Virus record (IMG/VR): IMGVR_UViG_3300042301_003793
Length of the DNA stretch: 64,000 bases
DNA from: a virus
Reading direction: 5' to 3' (one strand)
Shown in pieces: positions 2,125 to 40,044 of this stretch. The notes below the pieces were generated by a model. That model saw only the letters and a list, made by a program, of their open reading frames with translations, searched no databases and was not told the origin of the DNA. A program made the position numbers and the translations under genes. Positions within the stretch are counted from its first letter, which is position 1, and each line of letters begins with the position of its first letter.

Positions 2125-2346
2125 ATGCCTATAGACATAACAATTAACGATATTTCTGGTCAAACACCATTTGATGTTTACGTATGTAACACCGGACAGA
2201 CATATTGTGTGTATTCGGCAACAATAACATCTGGTGACTTACCTTACACTTTTGAAGTTCCAATTCCTTTTTTGAACTCTGAAGGTGTTAATTTAAGAAT
2301 TATTGATGATAATGACTGCCAAATAAATGAAATACTAATAATATAA
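2125..2346 (+). CDS. Small Cys-containing virion/adaptor protein (73 aa), paralog of 13268..13564
   Basis: Start reassigned to ATG 2125 (MPIDITIND), just after TATTTAT at 2112-2118. Shares the pattern I-x-I-x-x-I-x-G..P..Y-x-C..C-x-Y..P-x-T..P..F..L-(R/K)-(I/L)-I-D..C with 13268..13564. Confidence 0.7.
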   Translation: MPIDITINDISGQTPFDVYVCNTGQTYCVYSATITSGDLPYTFEVPIPFLNSEGVNLRIIDDNDCQINEILII

Positions 2347-3416
2347 TGGCTTGTACTGAAATAAATTTTTGTGTAGATTCTGGTGGTAACCTTTATGATG
2401 GTCAATATACCACAGATAGTGGTTTGTATAATGGTTTTACTTCTTACACTGGTGATAGTGTACCATTTTTTATATACTATTCATTAACTCAAGACAGATG
2501 GTGTTTATCCACAAGTTTGGGTGGTTCTTGTTCACAATTTGGTCCAGTTGGTATTGGTAGTGATTGTCCAGATTTTGATGAAAGTTTTTTTATAACTGGT
2601 GTTTGTATTACAACCACAACAACAACCTCGCCTTGTGATGTTTTTAATTTTGAAGCGATTTTTGATTGTTTGGTCCCAACAACAACTACAACGACTACTT
2701 TAGCACCAACAACTACTACAACAACTACGGTTCCTTTTAATCCTTGTACTGGTGTATCGGTAAATGCTTCAATAACAGCTTACACAACAACTACAACAAC
2801 AATTCCAGTTACAACTACAACAACAACAGAAGTTATAAGACCTTGTAATTTTGATGGTGTTGTAACATTTAATACATTTGATGAATATATGAGATGTGGT
2901 AATAGTAAGAAATTTAGGGATTGTTTAACGGGTATTGAATATTTTTCAAATGATTTATTATTCAATGAATCAGGTGATACATTAATTCAAAATTGGGTTT
3001 ATAAATCAACAATTAATGGTGTTTCTACTTGTGTTACGTTTATGGGTCTGGTAGATAACATTAGTGGTTCTGACGTTATAATAATAAATGAAACTTTAGG
3101 TTCCGAATTACAAGGTGCTTGTTTAGAGTGTGTTCCGGACCAAACAACTACGACCACAACTACCGCGGCACCAACTACGACCACAACTACGACTGTTGGT
3201 TGCCAAATAATCCAATATCGTGTACAAAATAATGGAATTACTGTTCAAGAATTTAAATATTTTGATTGTGATGGAAATACTATAAATTGTATTGTTTCGG
3301 GGTATGGAACGAGGGATATATGTTCAAGTACTCCACCAACTGTTTTACCTAATTCTAATGTATTGGTATATCCAGTTACACCACAAACTTTTTGTAATTC
3401 CGCAACAATTTGTTAA
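2346..3416 (+). CDS. Cys-rich modular virion protein with poly-Thr linkers
   Basis: 356 aa; seven runs of 6-7 Thr separate Cys-containing modules; start overlaps the stop of the upstream ORF. Confidence 0.7.
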   Translation: MACTEINFCVDSGGNLYDGQYTTDSGLYNGFTSYTGDSVPFFIYYSLTQDRWCLSTSLGGSCSQFGPVGIGSDCPDFDESFFITGVCITTTTTTSPCDVFNFEAIFDCLVPTTTTTTTLAPTTTTTTTVPFNPCTGVSVNASITAYTTTTTTIPVTTTTTTEVIRPCNFDGVVTFNTFDEYMRCGNSKKFRDCLTGIEYFSNDLLFNESGDTLIQNWVYKSTINGVSTCVTFMGLVDNISGSDVIIINETLGSELQGACLECVPDQTTTTTTTAAPTTTTTTTVGCQIIQYRVQNNGITVQEFKYFDCDGNTINCIVSGYGTRDICSSTPPTVLPNSNVLVYPVTPQTFCNSATIC

Positions 3417-4486: not shown

Positions 4487-7192
4487 TTAGATGTCTATCT
4501 TAATCACGTACTGTTGAATGCCCTGTCTTAACGTTGGTGATTGTAGTTTAGACATTACAAGAATATCTTTGTTATCATCAAGTAATGCTATTTCAGTTAC
4601 GTATGATTTTGTACCTGGAATCCAAGATGGGTTTGTTGATACTTGAAACTCACTAGAACTTAAATTTATCTTATATTTCATTTCATAAATTGTTGCCATT
4701 ATGTCTGTTTCAAATGCACCATAGAAATAATACTCATCACCAAAATTTAATGATTGCCCAGTATATCCAACTGGTGTTAGATTAATGTAGTCATTTAAGT
4801 TATAGTATGGTGCTGAATCGTAGTTATCTGGAGAAATAATAAACGTTGTTCCAGTTAATGAACTTTGAGTAATAAAACCATCTATAAAACTATTTTGGAT
4901 TTGTGTTGTAAAATCTACTTTTTTCCACATCGCAGGATTCGGTCTTTGTCCTGTTTGTACTTTTTGAACAAGGATTTCAAATTCATCACCAAAGAAACCG
5001 TTTGGTGTAATACAAGGTGAACAATTTGGTAAATAATTTGTAGTTGTAGTTGTTGTTATTGGAAATATTGTTGTAGTTGTTGTTGTACATCCACTACAAT
5101 CATCAACCAAATCAATGATTAAATCACCTTTTGATTGGATACCAGAACTTGAACAAACAACAGTTCCAGTATTTCCTGGTAATGTGAGTGGTGATGTTTT
5201 TGTTTCATCACAACAAGGTGTAAATATAACATTTGTACTTCCAGTAAGTTCTGTATTTGTAATTTGATATCTACCACAGAATGAATTAGTTGTTGTTGTC
5301 GTAGTAATAGGTTGTAAACTATATGGTTGTATTAAACAATTAAAGTCACCACCAAATCTTACAGCGACATTTTTTGAAACGTCTGGACTACACTCGTTAT
5401 TGTTACCTTTAATCGATGAATAATAATTACAATGTAATGAATTTGTAAAACAGAAAGTGTTATTTATTCTATATGTCACAAATAAAGTTTGTGAATCACC
5501 AGTTAATATACCTTGTGATGATGTTGTTGTATCACAAGTATTTGGTGTTATTAATGAAACTTGTGGTGCCGGTAATGTCCAGTTTCTATTTGACTTATAC
5601 GACATCGCTGCAATAATTTCTTCATCATCAATAATAACTAACTTACTATCTGGAAATACCTTACCAATTCTATTTGGTAATCCATCTGAATTAGGGTTTG
5701 TGTCCCACAAATGATAATACCTAATACCAGGTTGATTCATTCCTTCATTTTTTGTGGACTGAATATAATACGGTGTAAATAATTCTTTATCGTCAAATCC
5801 TGGAGGATCTACCCAGAAAGTTTGACCATTACAACAATTTGGATTTTTATGCCACATTAACCAAGGAATATGTAACTTAAAGTTTCTTGCTTGTCCAGTT
5901 GTATCATCTGGATTGGTTGGGTCGTATGGTTCTAATGCAAATTTTTCACCATAGAAGAAATCAATTGTTTGATTTGTATAATGAATTATTGCAATTGCCT
6001 TTTGTTCTTCTGGTTTTACTTGTACAATTTCACCAAAAGAATTATAATAAAAGGTATAACTTGTGTCTGTTTGTCCTAGACTAGAATTATAACCAAAATA
6101 TTCTTTACTACCTATATAATCTATTGAACCGAATTGCGTATAGTCTTTGAATTGACTTGGTATCAACCCTGCTGGGTTTTCTGTCCAAGGAATGTTCATA
6201 TTCCATACTTTAACATCAAATTGGTCTGTATCACAAATAGATTCAAAATCAATAACTTGTTCACTCCAATGTGGCATAGGTGTTATACTATCATATAATT
6301 GAGTCATACTAGAAGGATATAAAATTGCTCTAGAATAACAATTTACAGGATAACAAGTATAATTTGGTACGTTTCTATCAACTGTGATTGTATCCAAACA
6401 AATATCAACAATTTTGTAAGTTAACATAATTGTACAACTTTGTACTGGCATAAAACATTGTGGTGGTGGAGGTAATGGACATTGTGGACTAGGTGTTGGT
6501 GTTAAACAAGGAGTCTTTGACGGTGTAGGTGTTGGGGTTGGTGATAAACAAGGTATAATGGTTGTAGTTGTTGTAGTCGATGTTGTTGTCGTTGTTCCAG
6601 TAGGTGTTGGTGTCGGTGTAGGTAAGTTTACACATAGACAATTACAATCTGCTTGTCCGTCATAAAAAATTGTTATAATATCACCAATTTGTGGTTTTAC
6701 TGTATTTGGTGTATTACATCCAGAATAAATAAGTGTAATTTGATTTGACCCATCTAATGTCGACATATCAACAACATAGTTACCACTTAAAGCATATTGA
6801 TTACCAGTTAAAACTTCCCAATTTATTGTAGATGCTGTTGTAATTCCACCAAAAAATCCTCTTAATGGTGCTCTATTAAAAACAGAGTCAATAACAGAAT
6901 CCATAAATGGAATACCATAAGTGTTTCTTTGGTTAGTATCGGCATAATAAGGATATTTAACATACTGTCTATTTGATTGTGGAACACCAACAGTATTTTG
7001 ACTGTTAAATCCAGGTTCTAACACAAAACTATTAGATTGGTTGTAGGTTTGGGGTAATTTATCATACGATACTTCACTATCTCCAACTTGGAAATAAGAT
7101 ATTTTAAAATTACCTTGTGATAATTTTTGTCTACCTACGTCTGTGATTCTTGTGTTTACTAGACCTGATGTATTTTTTATTATGTATGCCAT
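4487..7192 (-). CDS. Baseplate/tail-fibre attachment protein with PT and poly-Thr inserts
   Basis: N-terminal ITDVGRQKLSQG..FQVGDSE and C-terminal VTEIALLDDNKDILVMSKL resemble the split halves of a P2 gpH-type tail-collar domain; contains PTPTP and poly-Thr tracts. Confidence 0.6.
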   Translation of the reverse strand: MAYIIKNTSGLVNTRITDVGRQKLSQGNFKISYFQVGDSEVSYDKLPQTYNQSNSFVLEPGFNSQNTVGVPQSNRQYVKYPYYADTNQRNTYGIPFMDSVIDSVFNRAPLRGFFGGITTASTINWEVLTGNQYALSGNYVVDMSTLDGSNQITLIYSGCNTPNTVKPQIGDIITIFYDGQADCNCLCVNLPTPTPTPTGTTTTTSTTTTTTIIPCLSPTPTPTPSKTPCLTPTPSPQCPLPPPPQCFMPVQSCTIMLTYKIVDICLDTITVDRNVPNYTCYPVNCYSRAILYPSSMTQLYDSITPMPHWSEQVIDFESICDTDQFDVKVWNMNIPWTENPAGLIPSQFKDYTQFGSIDYIGSKEYFGYNSSLGQTDTSYTFYYNSFGEIVQVKPEEQKAIAIIHYTNQTIDFFYGEKFALEPYDPTNPDDTTGQARNFKLHIPWLMWHKNPNCCNGQTFWVDPPGFDDKELFTPYYIQSTKNEGMNQPGIRYYHLWDTNPNSDGLPNRIGKVFPDSKLVIIDDEEIIAAMSYKSNRNWTLPAPQVSLITPNTCDTTTSSQGILTGDSQTLFVTYRINNTFCFTNSLHCNYYSSIKGNNNECSPDVSKNVAVRFGGDFNCLIQPYSLQPITTTTTTNSFCGRYQITNTELTGSTNVIFTPCCDETKTSPLTLPGNTGTVVCSSSGIQSKGDLIIDLVDDCSGCTTTTTTIFPITTTTTTNYLPNCSPCITPNGFFGDEFEILVQKVQTGQRPNPAMWKKVDFTTQIQNSFIDGFITQSSLTGTTFIISPDNYDSAPYYNLNDYINLTPVGYTGQSLNFGDEYYFYGAFETDIMATIYEMKYKINLSSSEFQVSTNPSWIPGTKSYVTEIALLDDNKDILVMSKLQSPTLRQGIQQYVIKIDI

Positions 7193-7230: not shown

Positions 7231-9294
7231 TTAATTTGGTTTTATTGGGTTTACAACCTGCACATCACAACAATCACAATTATTAACCGTTGGTTTACCT
7301 ACAATATATAAATTAAAGTCTCTATTTGCACCACGACATAAACCTACAGGTAAGTTATTTATAATATCAGTATACGAGCCTGTTATTGTTTGTCCACCAC
7401 TTATTGTTAACTGTTTTGTATAAGTTTTAATTTGTTGGTTTTGTGTTGGTACAGGTACTATACAATTGATATTTAAAGCCACTTGACTATTTGTTATTAT
7501 TGGTACACCCATGTCTCCTAATCCACCATCAAATGTTACCGTATTATCTAAACTTGGTGTTGGTAGAATGTTTGGTGGATAGTAATTTAATTGTGAATAT
7601 TGTTCAATATTAAATGTAATTATTTGTGTTGGGTCTAAATTAATAGATGGTTGTATTTGGAATGTATTAGAAACATCGTCTAATGTTAATGTTAAAACAA
7701 AAGTTTCTGGATTAGTTTGTGTTAAAGTAACTAAAGAAGGTGTTGATTGATAACCTAAACTGTCTTTTACAACAACTATATAACTTCCAGCATTTAAATT
7801 AGAAAAAGTTGATAATGTACTAAATGTTGTTCCATTATTAATCGAATATTGATAGGGTGGTACACCACCAAATGCTTGTATTGCGATACTACCTTTTGTA
7901 TCACAAATTAAATCATTTTTTGTTATATTTAAACTAATTTCTTTATAGTTAACACAATCACCAGTTGTTACTGTAATATCGATAATAGTAGGATCACCAA
8001 GTCCTTGCCAACCAATTAAAGGTGGCGGTGTTGGATTGTTATTTATAATACTACCAAACACAGAACTTCCTGAAACAATCCACTGATTTGTCGTTCCAGT
8101 ATTAAAATACATAAAATATAAATCATTATCTGATAACCAACTTTGGGTTCCATTTGTAATATTATATGGTTCAAATTGTATTTGTTCAAAAATAACAGAT
8201 TGTAATTTTGTAGGGCCTTTTTTTCTAATGGTCATACATAAATCACCATATACTGGAATTGGTTTTGTTGTTGTAGTAGTTGTAGTTGTTGGTGTTTCAG
8301 CTGTTAGGACACAGGTTGTGTTGGCTGTAAAATCACCATAAAAATCAATAACAGTTGCATTGTAATTTCCAACATTAAGATTGTAAATTAATGGTGTAAT
8401 ACTTCCAGTACTCCAAATTATTGTATACGGTGATGTTCCACCAGTTATTATTAGTGTTGCGGCACCATCAAATGAATTATAAGTTGACGGATGTGTTACT
8501 AAACATTCAACTTCCATTGGAAATATTGTTAATACGTCACATTCATTTCTTGGTTCTATTGTAATTGGTATAGAACAAGAACATCCTTCTTCTTGGTTAA
8601 TCTCAAACCCATAAGTTTCAACACAGCTTTGTACTCCGATATATTTTACTTCGTAACATTTTTCTGGTATTGGTAATGGATCTGTTATAGTAATTAATAA
8701 TGAATTATTTACATATCCAGAGAAAATTGGACTTGCACTAGTAAATGTTGGTACTGTTCCATCACAAGAGGATATCTCATAACAATCTGTATCACAAGGG
8801 TTACTTTCAACACAACTTACACAACCCAAGTCACCAAAAACTTCTGGGTTTTTAAAAATTGGGTAATAATTTGGTTGTAAGCCAAATTTTATTGATTTTT
8901 TATCGTAAACATAAAAACACCCATCATATGTTTCACCGCTAAGTAATGAAGGTGTATAACTATCACAATATACCGAATCATCAAGATTTAAGTAATCATC
9001 ATTGGCTAAAATTGTAATGTATTGGTTATCAATACAACAAGAACTTAAAAAATAAATTGAATTTGGTGTTACAACTTCATCACGTTGGAAATTATTTGTA
9101 TTTCCACTTATTGGGAATAACCCACAAAAATTTATTATAGCACTTTCTTGTGGTTCAAAACTTTCAAAAACAGTATTTCCAGAACAATCAATAAAAGTTA
9201 GTGTTTCAGTTGTTGTTCCAGTATTAACAATACCAGTCACTTTACAAGTTGTAAAACAATTTAAAATAAGGGGTGAAAAACTAACTTTAGCCAT
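7231..9294 (-). CDS. Cys-rich virion protein with SprB-like repeats
   Basis: DGAATLIITGGTSPYTIIWSTG...NLNVGNYNATVID and KGSIAIQAFGGVPPYQYSINNG...NLNAGSYIVVVKD; one T8 tract; many C-x-x-C and CC pairs. Confidence 0.65.
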   Translation of the reverse strand: MAKVSFSPLILNCFTTCKVTGIVNTGTTTETLTFIDCSGNTVFESFEPQESAIINFCGLFPISGNTNNFQRDEVVTPNSIYFLSSCCIDNQYITILANDDYLNLDDSVYCDSYTPSLLSGETYDGCFYVYDKKSIKFGLQPNYYPIFKNPEVFGDLGCVSCVESNPCDTDCYEISSCDGTVPTFTSASPIFSGYVNNSLLITITDPLPIPEKCYEVKYIGVQSCVETYGFEINQEEGCSCSIPITIEPRNECDVLTIFPMEVECLVTHPSTYNSFDGAATLIITGGTSPYTIIWSTGSITPLIYNLNVGNYNATVIDFYGDFTANTTCVLTAETPTTTTTTTTKPIPVYGDLCMTIRKKGPTKLQSVIFEQIQFEPYNITNGTQSWLSDNDLYFMYFNTGTTNQWIVSGSSVFGSIINNNPTPPPLIGWQGLGDPTIIDITVTTGDCVNYKEISLNITKNDLICDTKGSIAIQAFGGVPPYQYSINNGTTFSTLSTFSNLNAGSYIVVVKDSLGYQSTPSLVTLTQTNPETFVLTLTLDDVSNTFQIQPSINLDPTQIITFNIEQYSQLNYYPPNILPTPSLDNTVTFDGGLGDMGVPIITNSQVALNINCIVPVPTQNQQIKTYTKQLTISGGQTITGSYTDIINNLPVGLCRGANRDFNLYIVGKPTVNNCDCCDVQVVNPIKPN

Positions 9295-9306: not shown

Positions 9307-10287
9307 TTAGTTTTTTGTTTTTTCAATATAAGATTTCATAACATCAATATATTTTATTGTTGTACTATTAGAATCTATGTAATTAAAGTGGCTTTCATTT
9401 TCACGTAGTTTTTCAATTGGGTCAACATTTATATAATCGCCTTTATAAAATTTTGTGGATTTAAGGGTATCGGTTACACCCGCCATATGAAGAATAGGCA
9501 TTTTTTCATATTTTTCTATGTTGTCTGTTGCCCAAGAAAAATCAAGTTCATTTGTAATTTCAGTTTTATAATCAAATAACCATAAATTCCAAAGTAATGA
9601 CCACATTTCAGCTGTCCAAAATTGTATCTGACCAGGGTTGATTGGAAATCTTCTTTGGTAGTCTAACATTTGATTATATAGTGGTGTACAGTCATCATAA
9701 ACTTTTTTCCAAAACTCTGAATTTGTATTTTTTATAAGATATTGACCGCCACCAGAATTTTTTTGATTTTCTTTTATTACATCAACATCTATTCCTACAA
9801 CACTGGCCATTTCTTTTATTAGTTGTCCTTTTTCTGAATTTGGGTGTCTAGTTTCGTAGTTGTTACAACAATACATAATATAATCATAACCAATATATCC
9901 AATTGTGTCGGACAAATAACTTATATCATCTTTAACTAAACTTTTAAAGTCTGGTAGTGTTCTGAAAATAATATCAGCATCGTGTAAAAATATTTTTTTA
10001 CCCAGTTTTGGGAACTCTTTTAGCCATTGTGAAACAAGGTATGGTTTTATACTAGGTATGTAAGATTTTACATCTCTATTGTCTTCATAAAAATGTATAT
10101 TAACACCTAATTCCTTTAACTCTAAAGCACCTTTACTTGGTTCTTTAATTCCGTGAACAAGAGCTAATAAAACGTGTATTTGTTTTGGTTTAATTCCTTT
10201 TTCTATGAAATTATGAACATATAGTTTAATTTGCCAATGAAAATATGGAACGTCTGGTTGTGCAGTTACAAATACAATATCTTTCAT
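9307..10287 (-). CDS. GT-A glycosyltransferase, SERGT1/HPAT-like (GT96/GT95-like) protein O-glycosyltransferase
   Basis: Ordered motifs YFHWQ..HNF..KG, Y-x-P-x-I-K-P..WL, LHDADIIFR (DxD), GYIG, GG, WTAEMW and PILH parallel those I recall for plant peptidyl-serine galactosyltransferase. Confidence 0.7.
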   Translation of the reverse strand: MKDIVFVTAQPDVPYFHWQIKLYVHNFIEKGIKPKQIHVLLALVHGIKEPSKGALELKELGVNIHFYEDNRDVKSYIPSIKPYLVSQWLKEFPKLGKKIFLHDADIIFRTLPDFKSLVKDDISYLSDTIGYIGYDYIMYCCNNYETRHPNSEKGQLIKEMASVVGIDVDVIKENQKNSGGGQYLIKNTNSEFWKKVYDDCTPLYNQMLDYQRRFPINPGQIQFWTAEMWSLLWNLWLFDYKTEITNELDFSWATDNIEKYEKMPILHMAGVTDTLKSTKFYKGDYINVDPIEKLRENESHFNYIDSNSTTIKYIDVMKSYIEKTKN

Positions 10288-10316: not shown

Positions 10317-11537
10317 TTATAAATAATATAATACTTCAGCAGTTCCTAAAAATGTCGCACTCGCACTTAGTGGTGTTATACATACCCACATTTCATCAAG
10401 TGTTCCATTAACATTAGAACCAACTCTAATTTGATTGTCATCCACTTTAATCGTTGTAAGTGCTGATGTTCCTAATTCACCAATTAAGGATGACATAATG
10501 TGACCTGGTGATGTTATTGTTGCTGTCACAGTTCCGTTGTAAATTGAATATTGGAATGGTGAATTTGGTATATCGGTCCAACTTGGGGTTACAGACAATG
10601 TGGGGTTAAACTCAATAGTCACCAAGTAATTATCATTTGTGGTGTTTAAAATACTCAAACTACTATATTGTGATGTCACTGATTTATAACCTTGTTTAAG
10701 TCTATAACCAATATATGGGTATTTTGTACCTGACGAATTTAAATCTGCGTTTGTTGCGTTTTGAATACCTACAGTGGAGTACAACCCGTTTAATGCCCCT
10801 TCTGTTGATACTTGTGAACATATCATATCAAAATATCCAGAACCAACCCCAACCTGTCTTATTTCGTACCTGATAGGTTGATTTGGTGATGACATATAAA
10901 CATTTGGTTCATTATTTGCACAATTGTGTTCTGTAAAATAAAATAATTGTCCTGCGATATCCAAACCGAATCTCATTCTACCAACACCTAACCATTGATA
11001 ATCAACCGACATTAAATTAGTGTTAGACCAATTTATTCCTACTGGGTCAAACCCATTATTATCCCACACTGTTGTTGCGGCACTATATACCGTTGTACCC
11101 GACCTCCATATCTGAAAACTTATAGTGTTTGTGACTCCATTACTTTCTAAAAAGAATCCATCAAATACTGAATTATATGTGGATGCGGTTGTTGATGTGA
11201 ACCCACCAACTCTTTTTATAACATTTGTCTCTAATTGGAAGTTTGAGAAACTCGCTTGAAATAATTGACTCTTACCTGGTTGATAAATTGGGTGTGTTTT
11301 ACCTTGTCTAATTACCAAATCATTATTTGCGGATGTTGACATTCTAACTCTAGCATACTCTTGATTAAAAATAGAAGTTGCGGTTCCTGCTGTAACTTCG
11401 TTTATTTGTAATGGATTTTTATCATAGACGTGTTTTATATCCACTAAATTTTGTACGGCTGCTGTTCTTAATCTACCAAACGCATCAAGGTTTGGGCTAT
11501 CTGAATAAGAAACTTTATTATTAAAAATGAAACTCAT
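10317..11537 (-). CDS. Virion structural protein of the DAFGRLR-motif family (probable lectin-like beta-sandwich)
   Basis: NLDAFGRLRT motif near the N-terminus, YQPGK, WLGVG; start reassigned to ATG 11537 (ATGA overlap with the upstream fibre gene). Confidence 0.6.
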   Translation of the reverse strand: MSFIFNNKVSYSDSPNLDAFGRLRTAAVQNLVDIKHVYDKNPLQINEVTAGTATSIFNQEYARVRMSTSANNDLVIRQGKTHPIYQPGKSQLFQASFSNFQLETNVIKRVGGFTSTTASTYNSVFDGFFLESNGVTNTISFQIWRSGTTVYSAATTVWDNNGFDPVGINWSNTNLMSVDYQWLGVGRMRFGLDIAGQLFYFTEHNCANNEPNVYMSSPNQPIRYEIRQVGVGSGYFDMICSQVSTEGALNGLYSTVGIQNATNADLNSSGTKYPYIGYRLKQGYKSVTSQYSSLSILNTTNDNYLVTIEFNPTLSVTPSWTDIPNSPFQYSIYNGTVTATITSPGHIMSSLIGELGTSALTTIKVDDNQIRVGSNVNGTLDEMWVCITPLSASATFLGTAEVLYYL

Positions 11538-13234
11538 ATTATCCACCAATTATTATTTCTTGCCACAAATGTAAGTGACATATAGTTTATGTTCATATCT
11601 ATATAAGTATTACCATCTATTAAACCAGTTGTTGGTGTTACCCTTATTCTATAAGAACCTGCAGTTCCTCTTTCGTCTTTTATTTTAAAATTAAAACCAT
11701 CTAAACTTAATGGACTAGGAATTTGTATATCAGTATCACCACTATAAGTTACACCGTAATATGTGAAATTTGTTGATGCGGTATATCCTGATACCGAAAC
11801 ACTTGTTGTGTTTATATATGATGGTTGTGCTGTTTTATATTTTACAACACCTGTTGCGGAATCTCTTACTAAATAATCAGTTAAAGATTGATCCAAAATT
11901 GGTGTATCCTGTAATGCTAAATAATTTACGTGTAGGGTACAAGCAGAAACAGATTTAACATCTTTACCTACAGCACTTGATAAAATATGGTTTACTGTGT
12001 TACCAGAACCTCCTAAAATAGATGAATAACTACATAGTGTTGTATTTAATCTACCACCACCAACAAACGATCTACATCCAGAAGTTTTGTTTGTATCACC
12101 TCCAGCAATTGTTGAGTTTAGACTTAAGGCTTCATTTCCAACACCACCACCAATTGTTGAGTAACATGACGCGGTATTGCTACCACCACCACTTACTGTT
12201 GAAAACAGTGTTGCTGTATTATTACCACCACCGGCAACAGTAGAGTAGTCTTGATTTGTGACGTTGAATGTACCTCCATTTATTGAATTTGCATAACCAG
12301 ATGCTGAGTTTCCCAAACCACCAGAAACAACCGAATAAATTCCTGATACCGTATTGTAGTAACCACCTGAAATTGTGGTATAAATTGCTGAAGTTGTATT
12401 ACAATATCCACCACTTATTGTTGACATACAACCATTTGTTGTATTACAATATCCACCGCCGATTGTTGAATAATTACCATTTGTTGTATTTCTAACACCA
12501 CCACTAATTGTTTGACCATTGTAATATGAAGAAAGTGTTGTATTAAAAGTTCCTCCAGCAATTGTATTTCCATAACTATCAGAGTAAGCACTATAAGATG
12601 ATATTGTGTTAAAAGAACCGCCACCAATCGTTGACCCATAAACACAATAACTTCCAGATGTTGTTATTGTGTCTATTTTATTTAAACATCCTCCTCCGAT
12701 TAAACTTGAGCACGTATCTACTATTGTATTTCCTTCACCTCCACCTATTACTGAAACACCTCCAAACACCACGTTACAAAACCCACCACTAATTGTTGTG
12801 TAATTATTTAGAGCTGTATTACAACCACTTGTATTAAAGCTTCCGCCACCAACTATTGATCCTTCACCACCGGTTGTATTATTTTGACCACCACTAATAG
12901 TACCAAGAAGATCTATTGATTTGTTATTCAATCCGCCAGAAACAACGGCCCAATATCCACTAGCTGTGTTACAAAACCCACCACTTACTAATGAACAATT
13001 ACCACTAGCATCATTATTAAAACCAACTCTCTGTGTTGAGTCTGTGCCAAGTCCTACTTCATATAATTGTGTATTTCCAGTAAATCCAGATAATATTGCG
13101 TCAGATACTTGTTGTATTGTTGCTTTATATGATGAACCAGCTGGATTTTGTGATGTATCACCAGTAATCACAATATGTATTAAATCTTGTAATGTAACTC
13201 CTGTTGCTAATGTTCTGTCGGTAAGAAATGCCAT
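11534..13234 (-). CDS. Tail fibre/spike with about 21 Gly-rich 15-aa repeats (S-T-I-x-G-G-x-x-N)
   Basis: Tandem STIGGGxxNT repeats (trimeric beta-helix/YadA-head-like); short N-terminal anchor and a C-terminal domain ending NNNWWII. Confidence 0.75.
   Translation of the reverse strand: MAFLTDRTLATGVTLQDLIHIVITGDTSQNPAGSSYKATIQQVSDAILSGFTGNTQLYEVGLGTDSTQRVGFNNDASGNCSLVSGGFCNTASGYWAVVSGGLNNKSIDLLGTISGGQNNTTGGEGSIVGGGSFNTSGCNTALNNYTTISGGFCNVVFGGVSVIGGGEGNTIVDTCSSLIGGGCLNKIDTITTSGSYCVYGSTIGGGSFNTISSYSAYSDSYGNTIAGGTFNTTLSSYYNGQTISGGVRNTTNGNYSTIGGGYCNTTNGCMSTISGGYCNTTSAIYTTISGGYYNTVSGIYSVVSGGLGNSASGYANSINGGTFNVTNQDYSTVAGGGNNTATLFSTVSGGGSNTASCYSTIGGGVGNEALSLNSTIAGGDTNKTSGCRSFVGGGRLNTTLCSYSSILGGSGNTVNHILSSAVGKDVKSVSACTLHVNYLALQDTPILDQSLTDYLVRDSATGVVKYKTAQPSYINTTSVSVSGYTASTNFTYYGVTYSGDTDIQIPSPLSLDGFNFKIKDERGTAGSYRIRVTPTTGLIDGNTYIDMNINYMSLTFVARNNNWWII
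11970..13010 (-). repeat. Degenerate ~45-bp / 15-aa coding repeat array
   Basis: Repeated GGxxN units such as STIGGGYCNTTNGCM, STISGGYCNTTSAIY and TTISGGYYNTVSGIY. Confidence 0.8.
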
Positions 13235-36323: not shown

Positions 36324-37340
36324 TTACTTTTTTGTTTTGTTTCTAAAATTTGTTTTTTCTTTTCTTGATAGTTTTAAAAATGGTTTTAAAAAATTTACCC
36401 AAGCGTCGTCACCCTTTGGGAGAAATTTGAAGAATCCGTCTTCCATCATCATTCTTATTAGGTTTCTGTGTCCTCGTCCATCAGGATCCAATGACTCTGA
36501 GTAATATGACCTAACAAGTTCTTTTCCTTCCTGAGAAATGAGTGGATTAGCTAGGTCCACCAATTTTTCATTAATTGTGAAAAACTCTTCTCCAAATATT
36601 CCCTCTTTGGTTTTCCCACTAAGGAGATTTTGTAAAGCAACATTTCCCTTCTGTTCTGAAAGTAACATTTCTGCCTTTGTTAAAATATCGGTATATTTTA
36701 ATTCAGTATCAAGTATTTCAGGAAACAGTTTAAGAAATGTTTTTTCACCCAAATAAAAAATACCATCAATATTATCTGAACTATCACCAGTTAATATTTT
36801 ATAGGTTTTAACATTATAGTGTGGTATTTCGGATTCATATATTTTAATTCCGTCACCATTCTTATAATATCGCTTTTGTTGGGGTGAATATATAGTTACC
36901 CTCTCAGAAATAAGTTGTGTTAAATCTCTATCTGATGAAAATATTGTTTTATCTTCATCTTCTGAAATCTGACAATAGTAAGCTATCAAATCGTCGGCCT
37001 CCGATTGTTCAACTTCTAATTGTCTAACAAACATTTCTTCTAGGTATTGTTTTACCCTATTTTTTTGGGTTGTAAAAGACTGTTCTTTAAAATCTTCGTC
37101 GTCTTTTTGTTTTCGATTAAGTTTGTACTTGGGATAGATTAGTCTTCTCTGAGAAGAACCTGTTTGACTATCCCAAAATACTACAACTTTATTATAATTA
37201 CTTTCCTCTAAAAATCGTCTTAGAGTGTTTAAAAAATGCCAGGTACCACCAACGTGTTCTCCTTTATTAAAAAAGTCTCTAACACCGTGAAACCCAATTT
37301 TTAATAGATTGTTTCCATCAACTAATAAAGTCTTAGTCAT
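36324..37340 (-). CDS. 5'-3' exonuclease / flap endonuclease (Pol I N-terminal-like)
   Basis: LLVDGNNL, VVFWD, EADDLIA, SSDRDLTQL, GDSSDNIDG. Confidence 0.9.
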   Translation of the reverse strand: MTKTLLVDGNNLLKIGFHGVRDFFNKGEHVGGTWHFLNTLRRFLEESNYNKVVVFWDSQTGSSQRRLIYPKYKLNRKQKDDEDFKEQSFTTQKNRVKQYLEEMFVRQLEVEQSEADDLIAYYCQISEDEDKTIFSSDRDLTQLISERVTIYSPQQKRYYKNGDGIKIYESEIPHYNVKTYKILTGDSSDNIDGIFYLGEKTFLKLFPEILDTELKYTDILTKAEMLLSEQKGNVALQNLLSGKTKEGIFGEEFFTINEKLVDLANPLISQEGKELVRSYYSESLDPDGRGHRNLIRMMMEDGFFKFLPKGDDAWVNFLKPFLKLSRKEKTNFRNKTKK

Positions 37341-38355
37341 TAGATATTTCGTTTATTGGATTTGACATTGCTGGTTCTTTTTCTTCCATATATTCAGAAA
37401 AAAATTCACTGAAAATCGCTTCCATAACTGGAACACAGATTGAGTTTCCAGCTAGTGCTACGTGTGCCGTGTTTGATAAAGTAGTTGTTAATAACAAATT
37501 AATATCTTCTTCTCTAACACCCATAAATCTATAACCTTCTCTTGCTGTAATTGTTCTCACTCTACCATCTTCAGTTAATAACTGTGGTGAACCACTTGTT
37601 GTAAGACAAGGTGAACAGCCTTCAACAGAGTAAATTCTTCTTGTTTGGTCATAACTAACATCGTCTCTTCTACCAACTAATTTACAAATCGTATGTTTTT
37701 TTGGTTCATGTGGTGTGAATGGACAATCAACAATCAAAGATTCACTAAAGTTTTCGTCAATAAAAGATTTCATTGGTACTCTTGTTTTTTTATGACTATC
37801 AACGTTCATCATTTTTTCTTGTACTTCTTCAATACTACTATTTAGAACTGACATCATAAAAACTCTTTCTCTATTTTGTGGACAACCGAAGTCGGCACCA
37901 TTAAGGACTCTCCAATAAGAACTATACCCAAGTCCTCTTAAAAAATAGATATGTTTTTTAAAATTTTCGTAATGATTTTTTGAAACCAAGTTTTTAACGT
38001 TTTCCATTAACAAAAATTTTGGTCTATTTGCCGATAATAATCTTTCAACATCAAATAATAATCCACTTCTTGTTCCTTCTTTAATTCCTCTTTGTACTCC
38101 AGATATTGAAATGTCTTGGCAAGGAAATGAATATGTTAGTAAGTCACAACTTGGAAAGTTATTTTCATCAATTTTTGTAATATCACCTAAATTTCCATAA
38201 GTTGTTGTATGTAAAACATCATAACATTCGTTTGCCTGTTTGAAGTTATCACAGTTTGCAACATTTTCATAGTCAACACCAATGTATTTAAGTGCTAACT
38301 CTTGTGTTCCGTAACCGGAAAATAACGATACTACTTTTAATTTATTCTTGTTCAT
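37333..38355 (-). CDS. dcm: DNA (cytosine-5) methyltransferase
   Basis: SLFSGYG (motif I), SFPCQDIS (catalytic PC), MENV, QNRERVF, AGNSI. Confidence 0.9.
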   Translation of the reverse strand: MNKNKLKVVSLFSGYGTQELALKYIGVDYENVANCDNFKQANECYDVLHTTTYGNLGDITKIDENNFPSCDLLTYSFPCQDISISGVQRGIKEGTRSGLLFDVERLLSANRPKFLLMENVKNLVSKNHYENFKKHIYFLRGLGYSSYWRVLNGADFGCPQNRERVFMMSVLNSSIEEVQEKMMNVDSHKKTRVPMKSFIDENFSESLIVDCPFTPHEPKKHTICKLVGRRDDVSYDQTRRIYSVEGCSPCLTTSGSPQLLTEDGRVRTITAREGYRFMGVREEDINLLLTTTLSNTAHVALAGNSICVPVMEAIFSEFFSEYMEEKEPAMSNPINEISND

Positions 38356-39363: not shown

Positions 39364-40044
39364 TTAAATATAATCAATCATTTTATAATAATCATCATTA
39401 AAACATGGATTTAATGTAATATTTCCAACATTATTTTTAGTTATTTTATCTGTCCATTTAAATATTTCCTCATTTGATATGTTACCCATTCCAGAAACGT
39501 GATACGTTCCCATACCCCACCTATAAATCATAGTTTTTACAGTTTCGTCTTCAAATATTTTTGCGTTAAAACCAAGGGTTATATCATAATCTTCACCCCA
39601 ACTTTTATCACCAAATTGTATTCTTTCAATATATTTTTTAGTGTAGATATTTCCACTATTTAAGTTACTTTCTATACTTATAAAATTATTATTTTCAAAA
39701 TAATAAAAAGATTTTGGTCGGTATATTTCATATCCAGGATTATTTATAATCATTTCTTTTGACTGTTTCAACCCTTTTGGTACTAAAAGATCGTCGTCGT
39801 CAAGTCTATATATAAAATCAAAAGAACAATTTTTAAAACCCCATTCTAATTTTTTAGAGATGCTTGAAAATCTTTTGTCCAAATTAAAAATTTTAACCTG
39901 TGGGTGTGAAAAGTTGTAGAATGTACCTGGGCTATCGTTTACAACAATCATTTCAGAATCTGGTTCGTTCTGTAATAAAAACGAATGAATTGCTTCTTCT
40001 AAAATATGGTGTCTTTGATAAGTTAATGTTAATACTGAAATCAT
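39364..40044 (-). CDS. Family 2 glycosyltransferase
   Basis: ISVLTLTYQR..LEEAIHSFLLQ, EMIVVND, RLDDDD, WGED. Confidence 0.8.
   Translation of the reverse strand: MISVLTLTYQRHHILEEAIHSFLLQNEPDSEMIVVNDSPGTFYNFSHPQVKIFNLDKRFSSISKKLEWGFKNCSFDFIYRLDDDDLLVPKGLKQSKEMIINNPGYEIYRPKSFYYFENNNFISIESNLNSGNIYTKKYIERIQFGDKSWGEDYDITLGFNAKIFEDETVKTMIYRWGMGTYHVSGMGNISNEEIFKWTDKITKNNVGNITLNPCFNDDYYKMIDYI

Follow-up and report, generated by a model that had tools for sequence, protein, structure and literature searches.

We closely examined one gene in a 64,000-nucleotide stretch of viral DNA (IMG/VR record IMGVR_UViG_3300042301_003793; this whole stretch is here called the window) and found that it encodes a member of phrog_4417, a phage protein family annotated as of unknown function, with the modelled fold of a GT-A glycosyltransferase. 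The enzyme probably starts O-glycosylation on Thr (perhaps Ser) residues of the phage's own fibre and baseplate-associated proteins. Enzyme genes of this family and poly-Thr tags on neighbouring gene products come and go together in unrelated phages, which makes virion glycosylation probable, and a phage virion-protein O-glycosyltransferase aimed at poly-Thr tracts is most likely the best explanation of the data presented below.

The predicted gene is a genuine conserved one. It forms a single ATG-to-stop open reading frame (ORF) of 326 amino acids at positions 9307 to 10287 on the minus strand, and residues 6 to 319 of the product match positions 3 to 290 of the 293-position phrog_4417 profile (E 1.1e-71). 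A Pfam scan of the enzyme gave no family above threshold (best, a sub-threshold match to Nucleotid_trans, E 0.007), no NCBIfam model matched it, and no paper on the phrog_4417 enzyme family was found in the literature. Relatives numbered 1168 at E<=1e-3 in a 90%-clustered collection. A tblastn search of 50,697 phage records identified 77 cultured phage records with a relative, mainly phages of Lactobacillus, Enterococcus, Staphylococcus, and Lactococcus, and the best cultured-phage match was a Chryseobacterium phage. Among bacterial genomes, 134 stretches contain a relative, and many relatives are housed in prophages of Bacillota and in bacterial chromosomes. A preliminary description of the gene, made from its sequence, had quoted nine motifs as corresponding to those of the plant peptidyl-serine galactosyltransferase SERGT1 and had suggested an unrecognised prokaryotic or viral branch of that family. 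All nine motifs were located in the enzyme (YFHWQ at residue 15, HNFIEKG at 25, YIPSIKP at 76, QWL at 87, LHDADIIFR at 101, GYIG at 130, WTAEMW at 224, KTEITNEL at 241, and PILH at 264), and the suggestion of such a branch proved right. At 50% identity the relatives form 847 clusters, and a relative occurs on 594 or more IMG/VR contigs. One 5.3-kb contig labelled as belonging to a Candidatus Woesearchaeota metagenome-assembled genome (MAG) (CAYGYN010000024.1, L004) carries a copy of the enzyme gene (69% identical) among phage-like neighbours, and is most likely a phage contig wrongly binned into an archaeal MAG.

Pairing of the enzyme gene with poly-Thr tracts was evident in the loci of other phages. 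Relatives are found on contigs of 290 to 318 kb. In related jumbo-phage loci, a downstream ORF with a run of at least five Thr residues was present in 64 of the 73 loci with enough flanking sequence. Directly upstream of stand-alone relatives, the ORF contained a poly-Thr tract in 25 of 35 loci, 20 times at the C terminus, compared with a background of 25 among 351 other ORFs of the same loci (7%; odds ratio 32.6, p 8.6e-18). These tagged neighbours represent 14 different protein families; collapsing the enzymes to 13 clusters at 60% identity left the pairing in 7. Several of the partners are virion proteins or probable virion proteins. In Enterococcus phage phiFL1A, the relative gp51 comes next after gp50, a major tail protein whose C terminus is a Thr/Ser tail of 27 residues, and gp45, a probable capsid protein, also has a Thr/Ser tail. 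The relative in Lacticaseibacillus phage R3.3 follows a probable capsid protein ending in Thr runs, and in Chryseobacterium phage MA9V-3 the protein upstream of the relative has an internal 25-residue Thr/Ser tract.

We further analyzed 27 homologs of the phiFL1A major tail protein from IMG/VR. Each of the 12 homologs that carry a poly-Thr tail has an enzyme gene directly downstream, and this gene is missing for all 15 untailed homologs. The tailed homologs fall into two identity groups (83-100% and 66-67%) that are interleaved with untailed relatives, and therefore tail and enzyme were jointly gained or lost more than once. In prophages of Lentibacillus, Pseudogracilibacillus, and Oceanobacillus (loci L022, L027, L032, and L034), the upstream gene product is a protein of 113-122 amino acids, about half of which is Thr/Ser (roughly residues 57-120); this protein could be a dedicated glycosylated decoration protein.

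To describe the enzyme itself, an AlphaFold (AF2) model was computed from an alignment of 35 diverse relatives. The model was globular throughout (mean predicted local distance difference test [pLDDT] score, 97.2) and adopts a GT-A glycosyltransferase fold. Together with the DxD motif and the invariant residues, this bore out the assignment as a glycosyltransferase in the preliminary description. The gene and its presumed catalytic positions are as follows.

9307 to 10287, minus strand: gene for a phrog_4417-family GT-A glycosyltransferase, predicted to be soluble and a probable distant relative of PF23452 (HPAT) (ORF map, PHROG match, AlphaFold model, hhalign)
9973 to 9981, minus strand: DxD motif D103-A-D105, presumed metal and nucleotide-sugar site (codons read DAD)
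9487 to 9489, minus strand: His267, presumed third metal ligand of the GT-A site (codon reads H; no variation among diverse relatives)

D103 and D105 were found without exception across the relatives (sets of 35 and 80 diverse sequences), K282 is also invariant, and W18, Q19, Y76, P82, G180, Q182, W224, M228, and W229 are invariant or almost so. Among solved structures, the model comes closest to retaining GT8/GT24/GT77-type enzymes, namely, glycogenin (VIA Z score, 15.6), the Skp1 alpha-galactosyltransferase 6mw8 (14.6), LgtC (14.1), the catalytic domain of UGGT (14.0), and GlyE (13.6), over 211-243 residues; TarP and TarS are weaker neighbours (Z 9.8-10.2). Several of these retaining neighbours modify proteins or protein-bound glycans in the cytoplasm or endoplasmic reticulum, and a Ser-rich repeat protein is the target of GlyE, which belongs to the pneumococcal pathway for serine-rich repeat proteins. 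The window enzyme has a DxD plus His metal site, as these enzymes do, but its sequence identity to them is about 10%. Pfam GT8 (PF01501) matched neither the window enzyme nor any scanned relative, and hhalign to a GT8 protein gave 3.8% over 57 columns, so that only the fold is held in common with GT8. The maximum 19-residue Kyte-Doolittle mean of 0.8 indicated no transmembrane segment; since it lacks a hydrophobic segment, the protein is predicted to be soluble and cytoplasmic, and its active site is intact.

The nearest named sequence family is PF23452 (HPAT), which covers the plant hydroxyproline (Hyp) O-arabinosyltransferases HPAT1-3 (GT95); the related SGT1/SERGT1 is a peptidyl-serine alpha-galactosyltransferase (GT96). 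GT95 has been described as related to GT96, and the HPAT/GT95 family modifies protein acceptors (PMC8012813). Kinship was tested using the Pfam HPAT model (307 positions; gathering threshold, 23.9 bits) and bacterial PF23452 proteins as go-betweens, not plant sequences. The window enzyme did not match the model at E<=10 and thus missed the gathering threshold. PF23452 was the sole Pfam family matched by more than one of 57 stand-alone relatives (three matches, best E 0.046, all sub-threshold), and none of 80 genome-derived relatives matched it at E<=0.1. In a protein-language-model Atlas, 18 of the 30 nearest named clusters bear PF23452, and one neighbour is a bacterial cluster of 282 amino acids with PF23452 in 58% of its members. 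A PF23452 search of five bacterial genomes identified two proteins above threshold (34.6 and 30.6 bits), and a search with one bacterial PF23452 protein returned 120 bacterial proteins, all already annotated as PF23452 and most of them fused to a PqqD peptide-binding domain.

Aligned with 25 bacterial PF23452 proteins by hhalign, the phage family profile gave 85.6% (E 5.6e-6) over 266 colinear columns, corresponding to the whole domain, compared with 3.8% for GT8 and 0.4% for GT2 as controls of the same method. Single-sequence comparisons with two PF23452 proteins gave 77.7% and 48.5%, and hmmsearch between the phage family and bacterial PF23452 proteins gave 17-28 bits in both directions. The positions W18-Q19, Y76..K81-P82, D103-x-D105-x-x-F-R, W224..E227-M228, H267, and K282-G-x-Y285 are in register with the bacterial proteins. 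At the catalytic positions, D103/D105 pair with D99/D101, E227-M228 with D197-M198, H267 with H235, and K282 with K251, and D99/D101 and H235 are invariant among the bacterial PF23452 proteins. An AlphaFold model of one of these proteins (pLDDT, 91.7) had as its best match among predicted viral structures the phrog_4417 member A0A6J5SW30 (E 3e-10), the next match (5.5e-8) being about 180-fold worse. The same protein is the top viral structure for the model of the window enzyme (E 3.5e-35, TM 0.88). We conclude that the phrog_4417 family is probably a distant sister of PF23452 and not a member by Pfam's rule; the evidence favours neither GT96 nor GT95 specifically.

The plant-type assignment made earlier thus stands in part. 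HPAT, to which SERGT1 is related, is the nearest named family, and the window enzyme does not reach the Pfam threshold. The narrower assignment to SERGT1/GT96, with serine as acceptor and galactose as donor, gained no support, and the genomic context favours Thr tracts over Ser-Hyp motifs. The HPAT-like Pfam search that had been proposed as a check gave no match for the enzyme and sub-threshold matches for the three relatives mentioned above. Six of the nine quoted motifs are in register with bacterial PF23452 proteins (YFHWQ, the HNFIEKG region, YIPSIKP..QWL, LHDADIIFR, WTAEMW, and PILH), and GYIG and KTEITNEL have no clear counterpart there. The PDB contains no PF23452 structure and hence no solved GT95/GT96 structure for comparison, which is why the fold matches obtained from it are GT8-like only. 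Sequence searches of the PDB with the window enzyme, the family profile, and the PF23452 profile found nothing meaningful. All proteins returned by three homolog searches were from phages or bacteria; for the family-wide exhaustive search, the matches listed are the best 150. A back-translated 'LDADMII' motif was found in 43 in-frame ORFs in IMG/VR, none of which matched the family, and those tested were GT8, GT2-TPR, cytidylyltransferase, and Thy1 proteins. No candidates emerged when three phage genomes and the nearest virus record, a 45-kb fragment (15% complete) that lacks the gene, were searched in six frames for PF23452, the method being too insensitive at such distance.

We also analyzed the genomic surroundings of bacterial relatives. 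In a Myxococcales MAG (L183 1-3567, identical to L029), three abutting co-directional genes encode a 2-oxoglutarate (2OG)-Fe(II) oxygenase of the prolyl-hydroxylase type (PF13640, E 4.2e-12), an HPAT-PqqD protein, and a member of the phage family (E 7.7e-78). The same gene order occurs in the metagenomic contigs L186 (4566-8237) and L299 (3597-9041). A phage-family member is the next gene to a bacterial PF23452 gene in three of seven sampled loci, in a Microthrix MAG the HPAT and phage-family genes are 4 kb apart, and three further sampled HPAT loci are without a phage-family gene. Single polypeptides joining the oxygenase, HPAT, and PF11397 (a Skp1-type GlcNAc transferase) exist (P0399 and P0401), a PF11397 gene is often found near the oxygenase/HPAT-PqqD clusters, a group that also takes in L011/L184, and some phage-family members carry a fused PF11397, O-FucT, or Glyco_transf_7C domain. 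A 1003-amino-acid fused form at L029 was rejected as an over-extended ORF in high-GC DNA that overlaps the HPAT gene; it is really two adjacent genes. The clusters look like a cassette for extensin-style peptide hydroxylation and glycosylation, and the genomic company of the phage family, as judged from predicted functions, is that of peptide- or protein-directed glycosylation. The phage-family member accompanies a bona fide HPAT and does not replace it, consistent with a different acceptor residue. In chromosomes of Chitinophaga, Mucilaginibacter, Pedobacter, and Sphingobacterium (L008, L015, L017-L019, L025, and about 40 more), fused forms of 450-590 amino acids consist of the phage-family domain and, after it, another glycosyltransferase domain of the Glyco_transf_7C/GT2 type. 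An ORF of 340-390 amino acids regularly follows these fused forms, 1 of 44 has a poly-Thr neighbour, and their acceptor is probably a different one outside the virion.

The window comes from a T4-like myophage, a jumbo phage of lake water. Among its products are a gp25 wedge protein, a gp6-like wedge subunit, a T4 baseplate protein, and a gp19-like tube protein, together with a ribonucleotide reductase, a DnaB-like helicase, and a UvsX-like recombinase. SprB repeats and the Chryseobacterium phage as best cultured-phage match point to Bacteroidota as the likely host. The enzyme gene is tightly packed in a long co-directional block, and the proteins adjoining it or carrying Thr runs are the following.

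10317 to 11549, minus strand: virion structural protein of 410 amino acids, directly upstream of the enzyme gene, co-directional, 29-base gap (phrog_1645, E 3.4e-47)
7231 to 9294, minus strand: fibre-like protein of 687 amino acids, directly downstream, 12-base gap, SprB repeat (PF13573, E 9.7e-8), candidate acceptor
4487 to 7192, minus strand: fibre-like protein of 901 amino acids, four Thr runs (residues 200, 630, 703, and 713) and a Pro-Thr linker at about 190-250, candidate acceptor
2346 to 3416, plus strand: Cys-rich protein of 356 amino acids, seven runs of 6-7 Thr, candidate acceptor
48865 to 54015, minus strand: protein of 1716 amino acids, two Thr runs (residues 1057 and 1070), candidate acceptor
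59136 to 62795, minus strand: protein of 1219 amino acids, two Thr runs (residues 303 and 423), candidate acceptor

Runs of at least five Thr occur 17 times in the large ORFs of the window, compared with 0.08 expected from composition, and five proteins carry them. Pro residues are often found on their flanks. The runs use mixed ACN codons, and selection therefore acts on the protein. In the 687-amino-acid protein, a run of eight Thr is encoded at 8266-8289 (translation, TTTTTTTT). In lake metagenomes, contig depth rises about tenfold over 8239-8382, the stretch with this run (108 versus 11 in run X1), and similar Thr-run coding sequences appear to be common to many organisms or phages in the lake samples. 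A lake-water metagenome run also holds a 2756-base contig identical to window DNA. In a lake metatranscriptome, contigs of 90-95% identity cover the upstream structural gene and no part of the enzyme gene and are uninformative on expression. A second glycosyltransferase gene was observed at 39364-40044 on the minus strand; it encodes a GT2 protein of 226 amino acids (PF00535, E 2.7e-10), is located between the UvsX-like recombinase/DNA methyltransferase block and a gene for a single-stranded DNA-binding protein (SSB)-like product, and could serve glycan extension or DNA modification. The DNA methyltransferase gene (phrog_116, E 3.6e-73; 37333-38355, minus strand) belongs to the replication block and, taken together with the neighbouring GT2 gene, might be a sign that the DNA is modified.

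For the window phage, we infer a Thr acceptor in virion proteins, a retaining mechanism, and a benefit to the particle. In the cytoplasm of the infected cell, the enzyme would bind a nucleotide-sugar through its DxD/His metal site and transfer the first sugar to hydroxyls of Thr (perhaps Ser) in exposed, disordered poly-Thr and Pro-Thr linkers. Fibre and baseplate-associated proteins would be the acceptors, modified before or during assembly. An alpha-linked sugar, formed by a retaining mechanism, would be the most likely product, because the GT-A neighbours are retaining and GT95/GT96 share this chemistry. The virion would thereby acquire glycosylated, mucin-like linkers, the glycans of which further enzymes may extend. 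By analogy with mucins and mycobacteriophage virions, such linkers might be stiff, hydrated, and protease resistant, or the glycan might act as a shield.

Several observations weigh against this proposal or narrow it. The pairing with poly-Thr tracts is genomic and not biochemical, the loci counted are not phylogenetically independent, and the acceptor cannot be read from the shared fold. No poly-Thr neighbour was found for 10 of the 35 stand-alone relatives or for 43 of the 44 fused bacterial forms, and therefore the family has other acceptors, too. Other phages supply the clearest evidence for pairing, because in the window and closely related loci the Thr runs are found inside the products of downstream genes instead of at the C terminus of the upstream gene product. 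The link to PF23452 rests on the hhalign value of 85.6% and on bacterial intermediates and is hence probable, not certain.

That last point leaves room for a different account of the sequence kinship, in which the resemblance to HPAT/SGT1 is that of a generic GT-A scaffold and the enzyme is merely GT8-like, with no special tie to the plant family. The missing Pfam match of the window enzyme, the three sub-threshold matches among 57 relatives and none among 80, the GT8/GT24/GT77 identity of the best solved structures, and an hhalign value below 95% are all consistent with it. Nevertheless, we consider it unlikely: both control families scored far lower by the same method, the alignment extends over the 266 columns with the conserved positions from W-Q through K-G-x-Y in register, and a fold search of the PDB is unable to find a family that is not represented in it. 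The reciprocal match to A0A6J5SW30 and the prevalence of PF23452 among the Atlas clusters also argue against a generic scaffold. With regard to the acceptor, many phage and prophage glycosyltransferases alter host surface glycans, and the enzyme might modify teichoic acid, lipopolysaccharide, capsule, or a cell-wall polysaccharide, thereby blocking superinfection or changing the serotype. The many relatives in Bacillota prophages and bacterial chromosomes, the GT-A enzymes TarP and TarS among the weaker structural neighbours, and the fused bacterial forms with a second glycosyltransferase domain and no poly-Thr neighbours would fit this function. It appears quite improbable, though, for a gene that is located within virion modules and not beside integrase or lysogeny genes, is conserved in large T4-like phages, and tracks the poly-Thr tail exactly (12 of 12 versus 0 of 15). 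The enzyme also lacks a membrane segment, and no flippase or Gtr-type partner is encoded nearby.

Glycosylation of hydroxyproline in the manner of HPAT, with the Pro residues beside the Thr runs as the true sites, is very doubtful. HPAT is the nearest named family, Pro often flanks the runs in the window, and bacterial relatives cluster with a P4H-type oxygenase; however, no 2OG-Fe(II) oxygenase was found among about 30 window ORFs scanned (not every ORF was scanned), the tags in phages of Gram-positive hosts are almost pure Thr/Ser with few or no Pro, and the separate bona fide HPAT gene that accompanies the family in bacterial clusters suggests a different job for the phage-type enzyme. We give hardly any credence to glycosylation of phage DNA (hypermodified bases), as in T4 and by phage GT-A/GT-B DNA glycosyltransferases. 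The window does derive from a T4-like phage with a DNA methyltransferase, and DNA-hypermodifying phage GT-A enzymes exist; these are TarP/JGT-like, with an R...DDD...EDY/F motif, and their gene clusters contain a methyltransferase, a dioxygenase, or a thymidylate synthase (bioRxiv 10.1101/2023.12.21.572611). In contrast, the window enzyme has a different motif set and is encoded among fibre genes about 27 kb from the methyltransferase gene, and the GT2 gene at 39364-40044 in the DNA-metabolism block is a better candidate for this role. Covariation with poly-Thr tails in small siphophages, moreover, has no DNA-based explanation.

O-glycosylation of virion proteins at poly-Thr tracts, if true, would have consequences beyond the window phage. 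To our knowledge, mycobacteriophages are the only phages known to glycosylate their own particles, and GT95/GT96 enzymes have so far been described almost only in green plants and algae. For the family as a whole, we see the arguments as about evenly balanced on a broader proposal, namely, that phrog_4417 is an undescribed, widespread phage system of mucin-type self-glycosylation, in which an initiator of the HPAT/SGT1 superfamily and poly-Thr tags on capsid, tail-tube, or fibre proteins are gained and lost jointly, and that the plant extensin-type toolkit (hydroxylase, Hyp-glycosyltransferase, and Ser/Thr-glycosyltransferase) is an ancient prokaryotic invention. The system would range over siphophages of Enterococcus, Lactobacillaceae, and Bacillaceae, phages of Bacteroidota, and freshwater jumbo phages. 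Virion glycosylation would then be common in phages of lactic acid bacteria, enterococci, and Bacteroidota and in jumbo phages of lake water, with consequences for immune recognition in phage therapy, for the biology of dairy phages, and for the stability and adhesion of virions. Many proteins now listed as 'hypothetical' would, as one large family, acquire a name and a function open to testing, glycosylated virion proteins could be predicted by a simple rule (the enzyme gene next to a sequence with a poly-Thr tag), and plant GT95/GT96 would be linked to a prokaryotic and viral radiation.

Compared with known systems, the enzyme resembles HPAT/SGT1 in a domain of about 300 residues with the shared order W-Q, Y-x-P-x-x-K-P, DxD followed by F-R, W-x-x-[ED]-M, His, and K-G-x-Y. 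It differs in that the plant enzymes are type II membrane-anchored Golgi proteins, whereas the window enzyme is predicted to be soluble, at 326 amino acids and with no anchor, and in its likely acceptor, which would be poly-Thr and not Hyp or Ser-Hyp4. The chlorovirus protein PBCV-1 A64R (PDB 2p6w; structural neighbour, Z 11.3) is likewise a virus-encoded cytoplasmic GT-A enzyme and is involved in glycosylation of the capsid protein of its own virus, but it is a weaker structural match, belongs to another family, and comes from a eukaryotic virus. In the mycobacteriophages Che8, Corndog, and Myrna, phage glycosyltransferases reportedly modify capsid and tail tube proteins of the same phage (Freeman et al. 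2023, Cell Host Microbe 31:1216, cited in PMC11256854 and PMC12363180), and the glycans shield the particles from antibodies (PMC11256854, PMC12363180). As there, a glycosyltransferase gene is linked to virion genes in the Enterococcus and Lacticaseibacillus phages, where relatives lie beside capsid or major tail genes, a likeness in gene arrangement. The mycobacteriophage enzymes belong to another family, and no Mycobacterium phage was among the named host groups in the tblastn search of phage records; the phrog_4417 family is instead found in phages of Bacillota and Bacteroidota and in freshwater jumbo phages and is accompanied by a recognisable putative acceptor tag, the poly-Thr tract.

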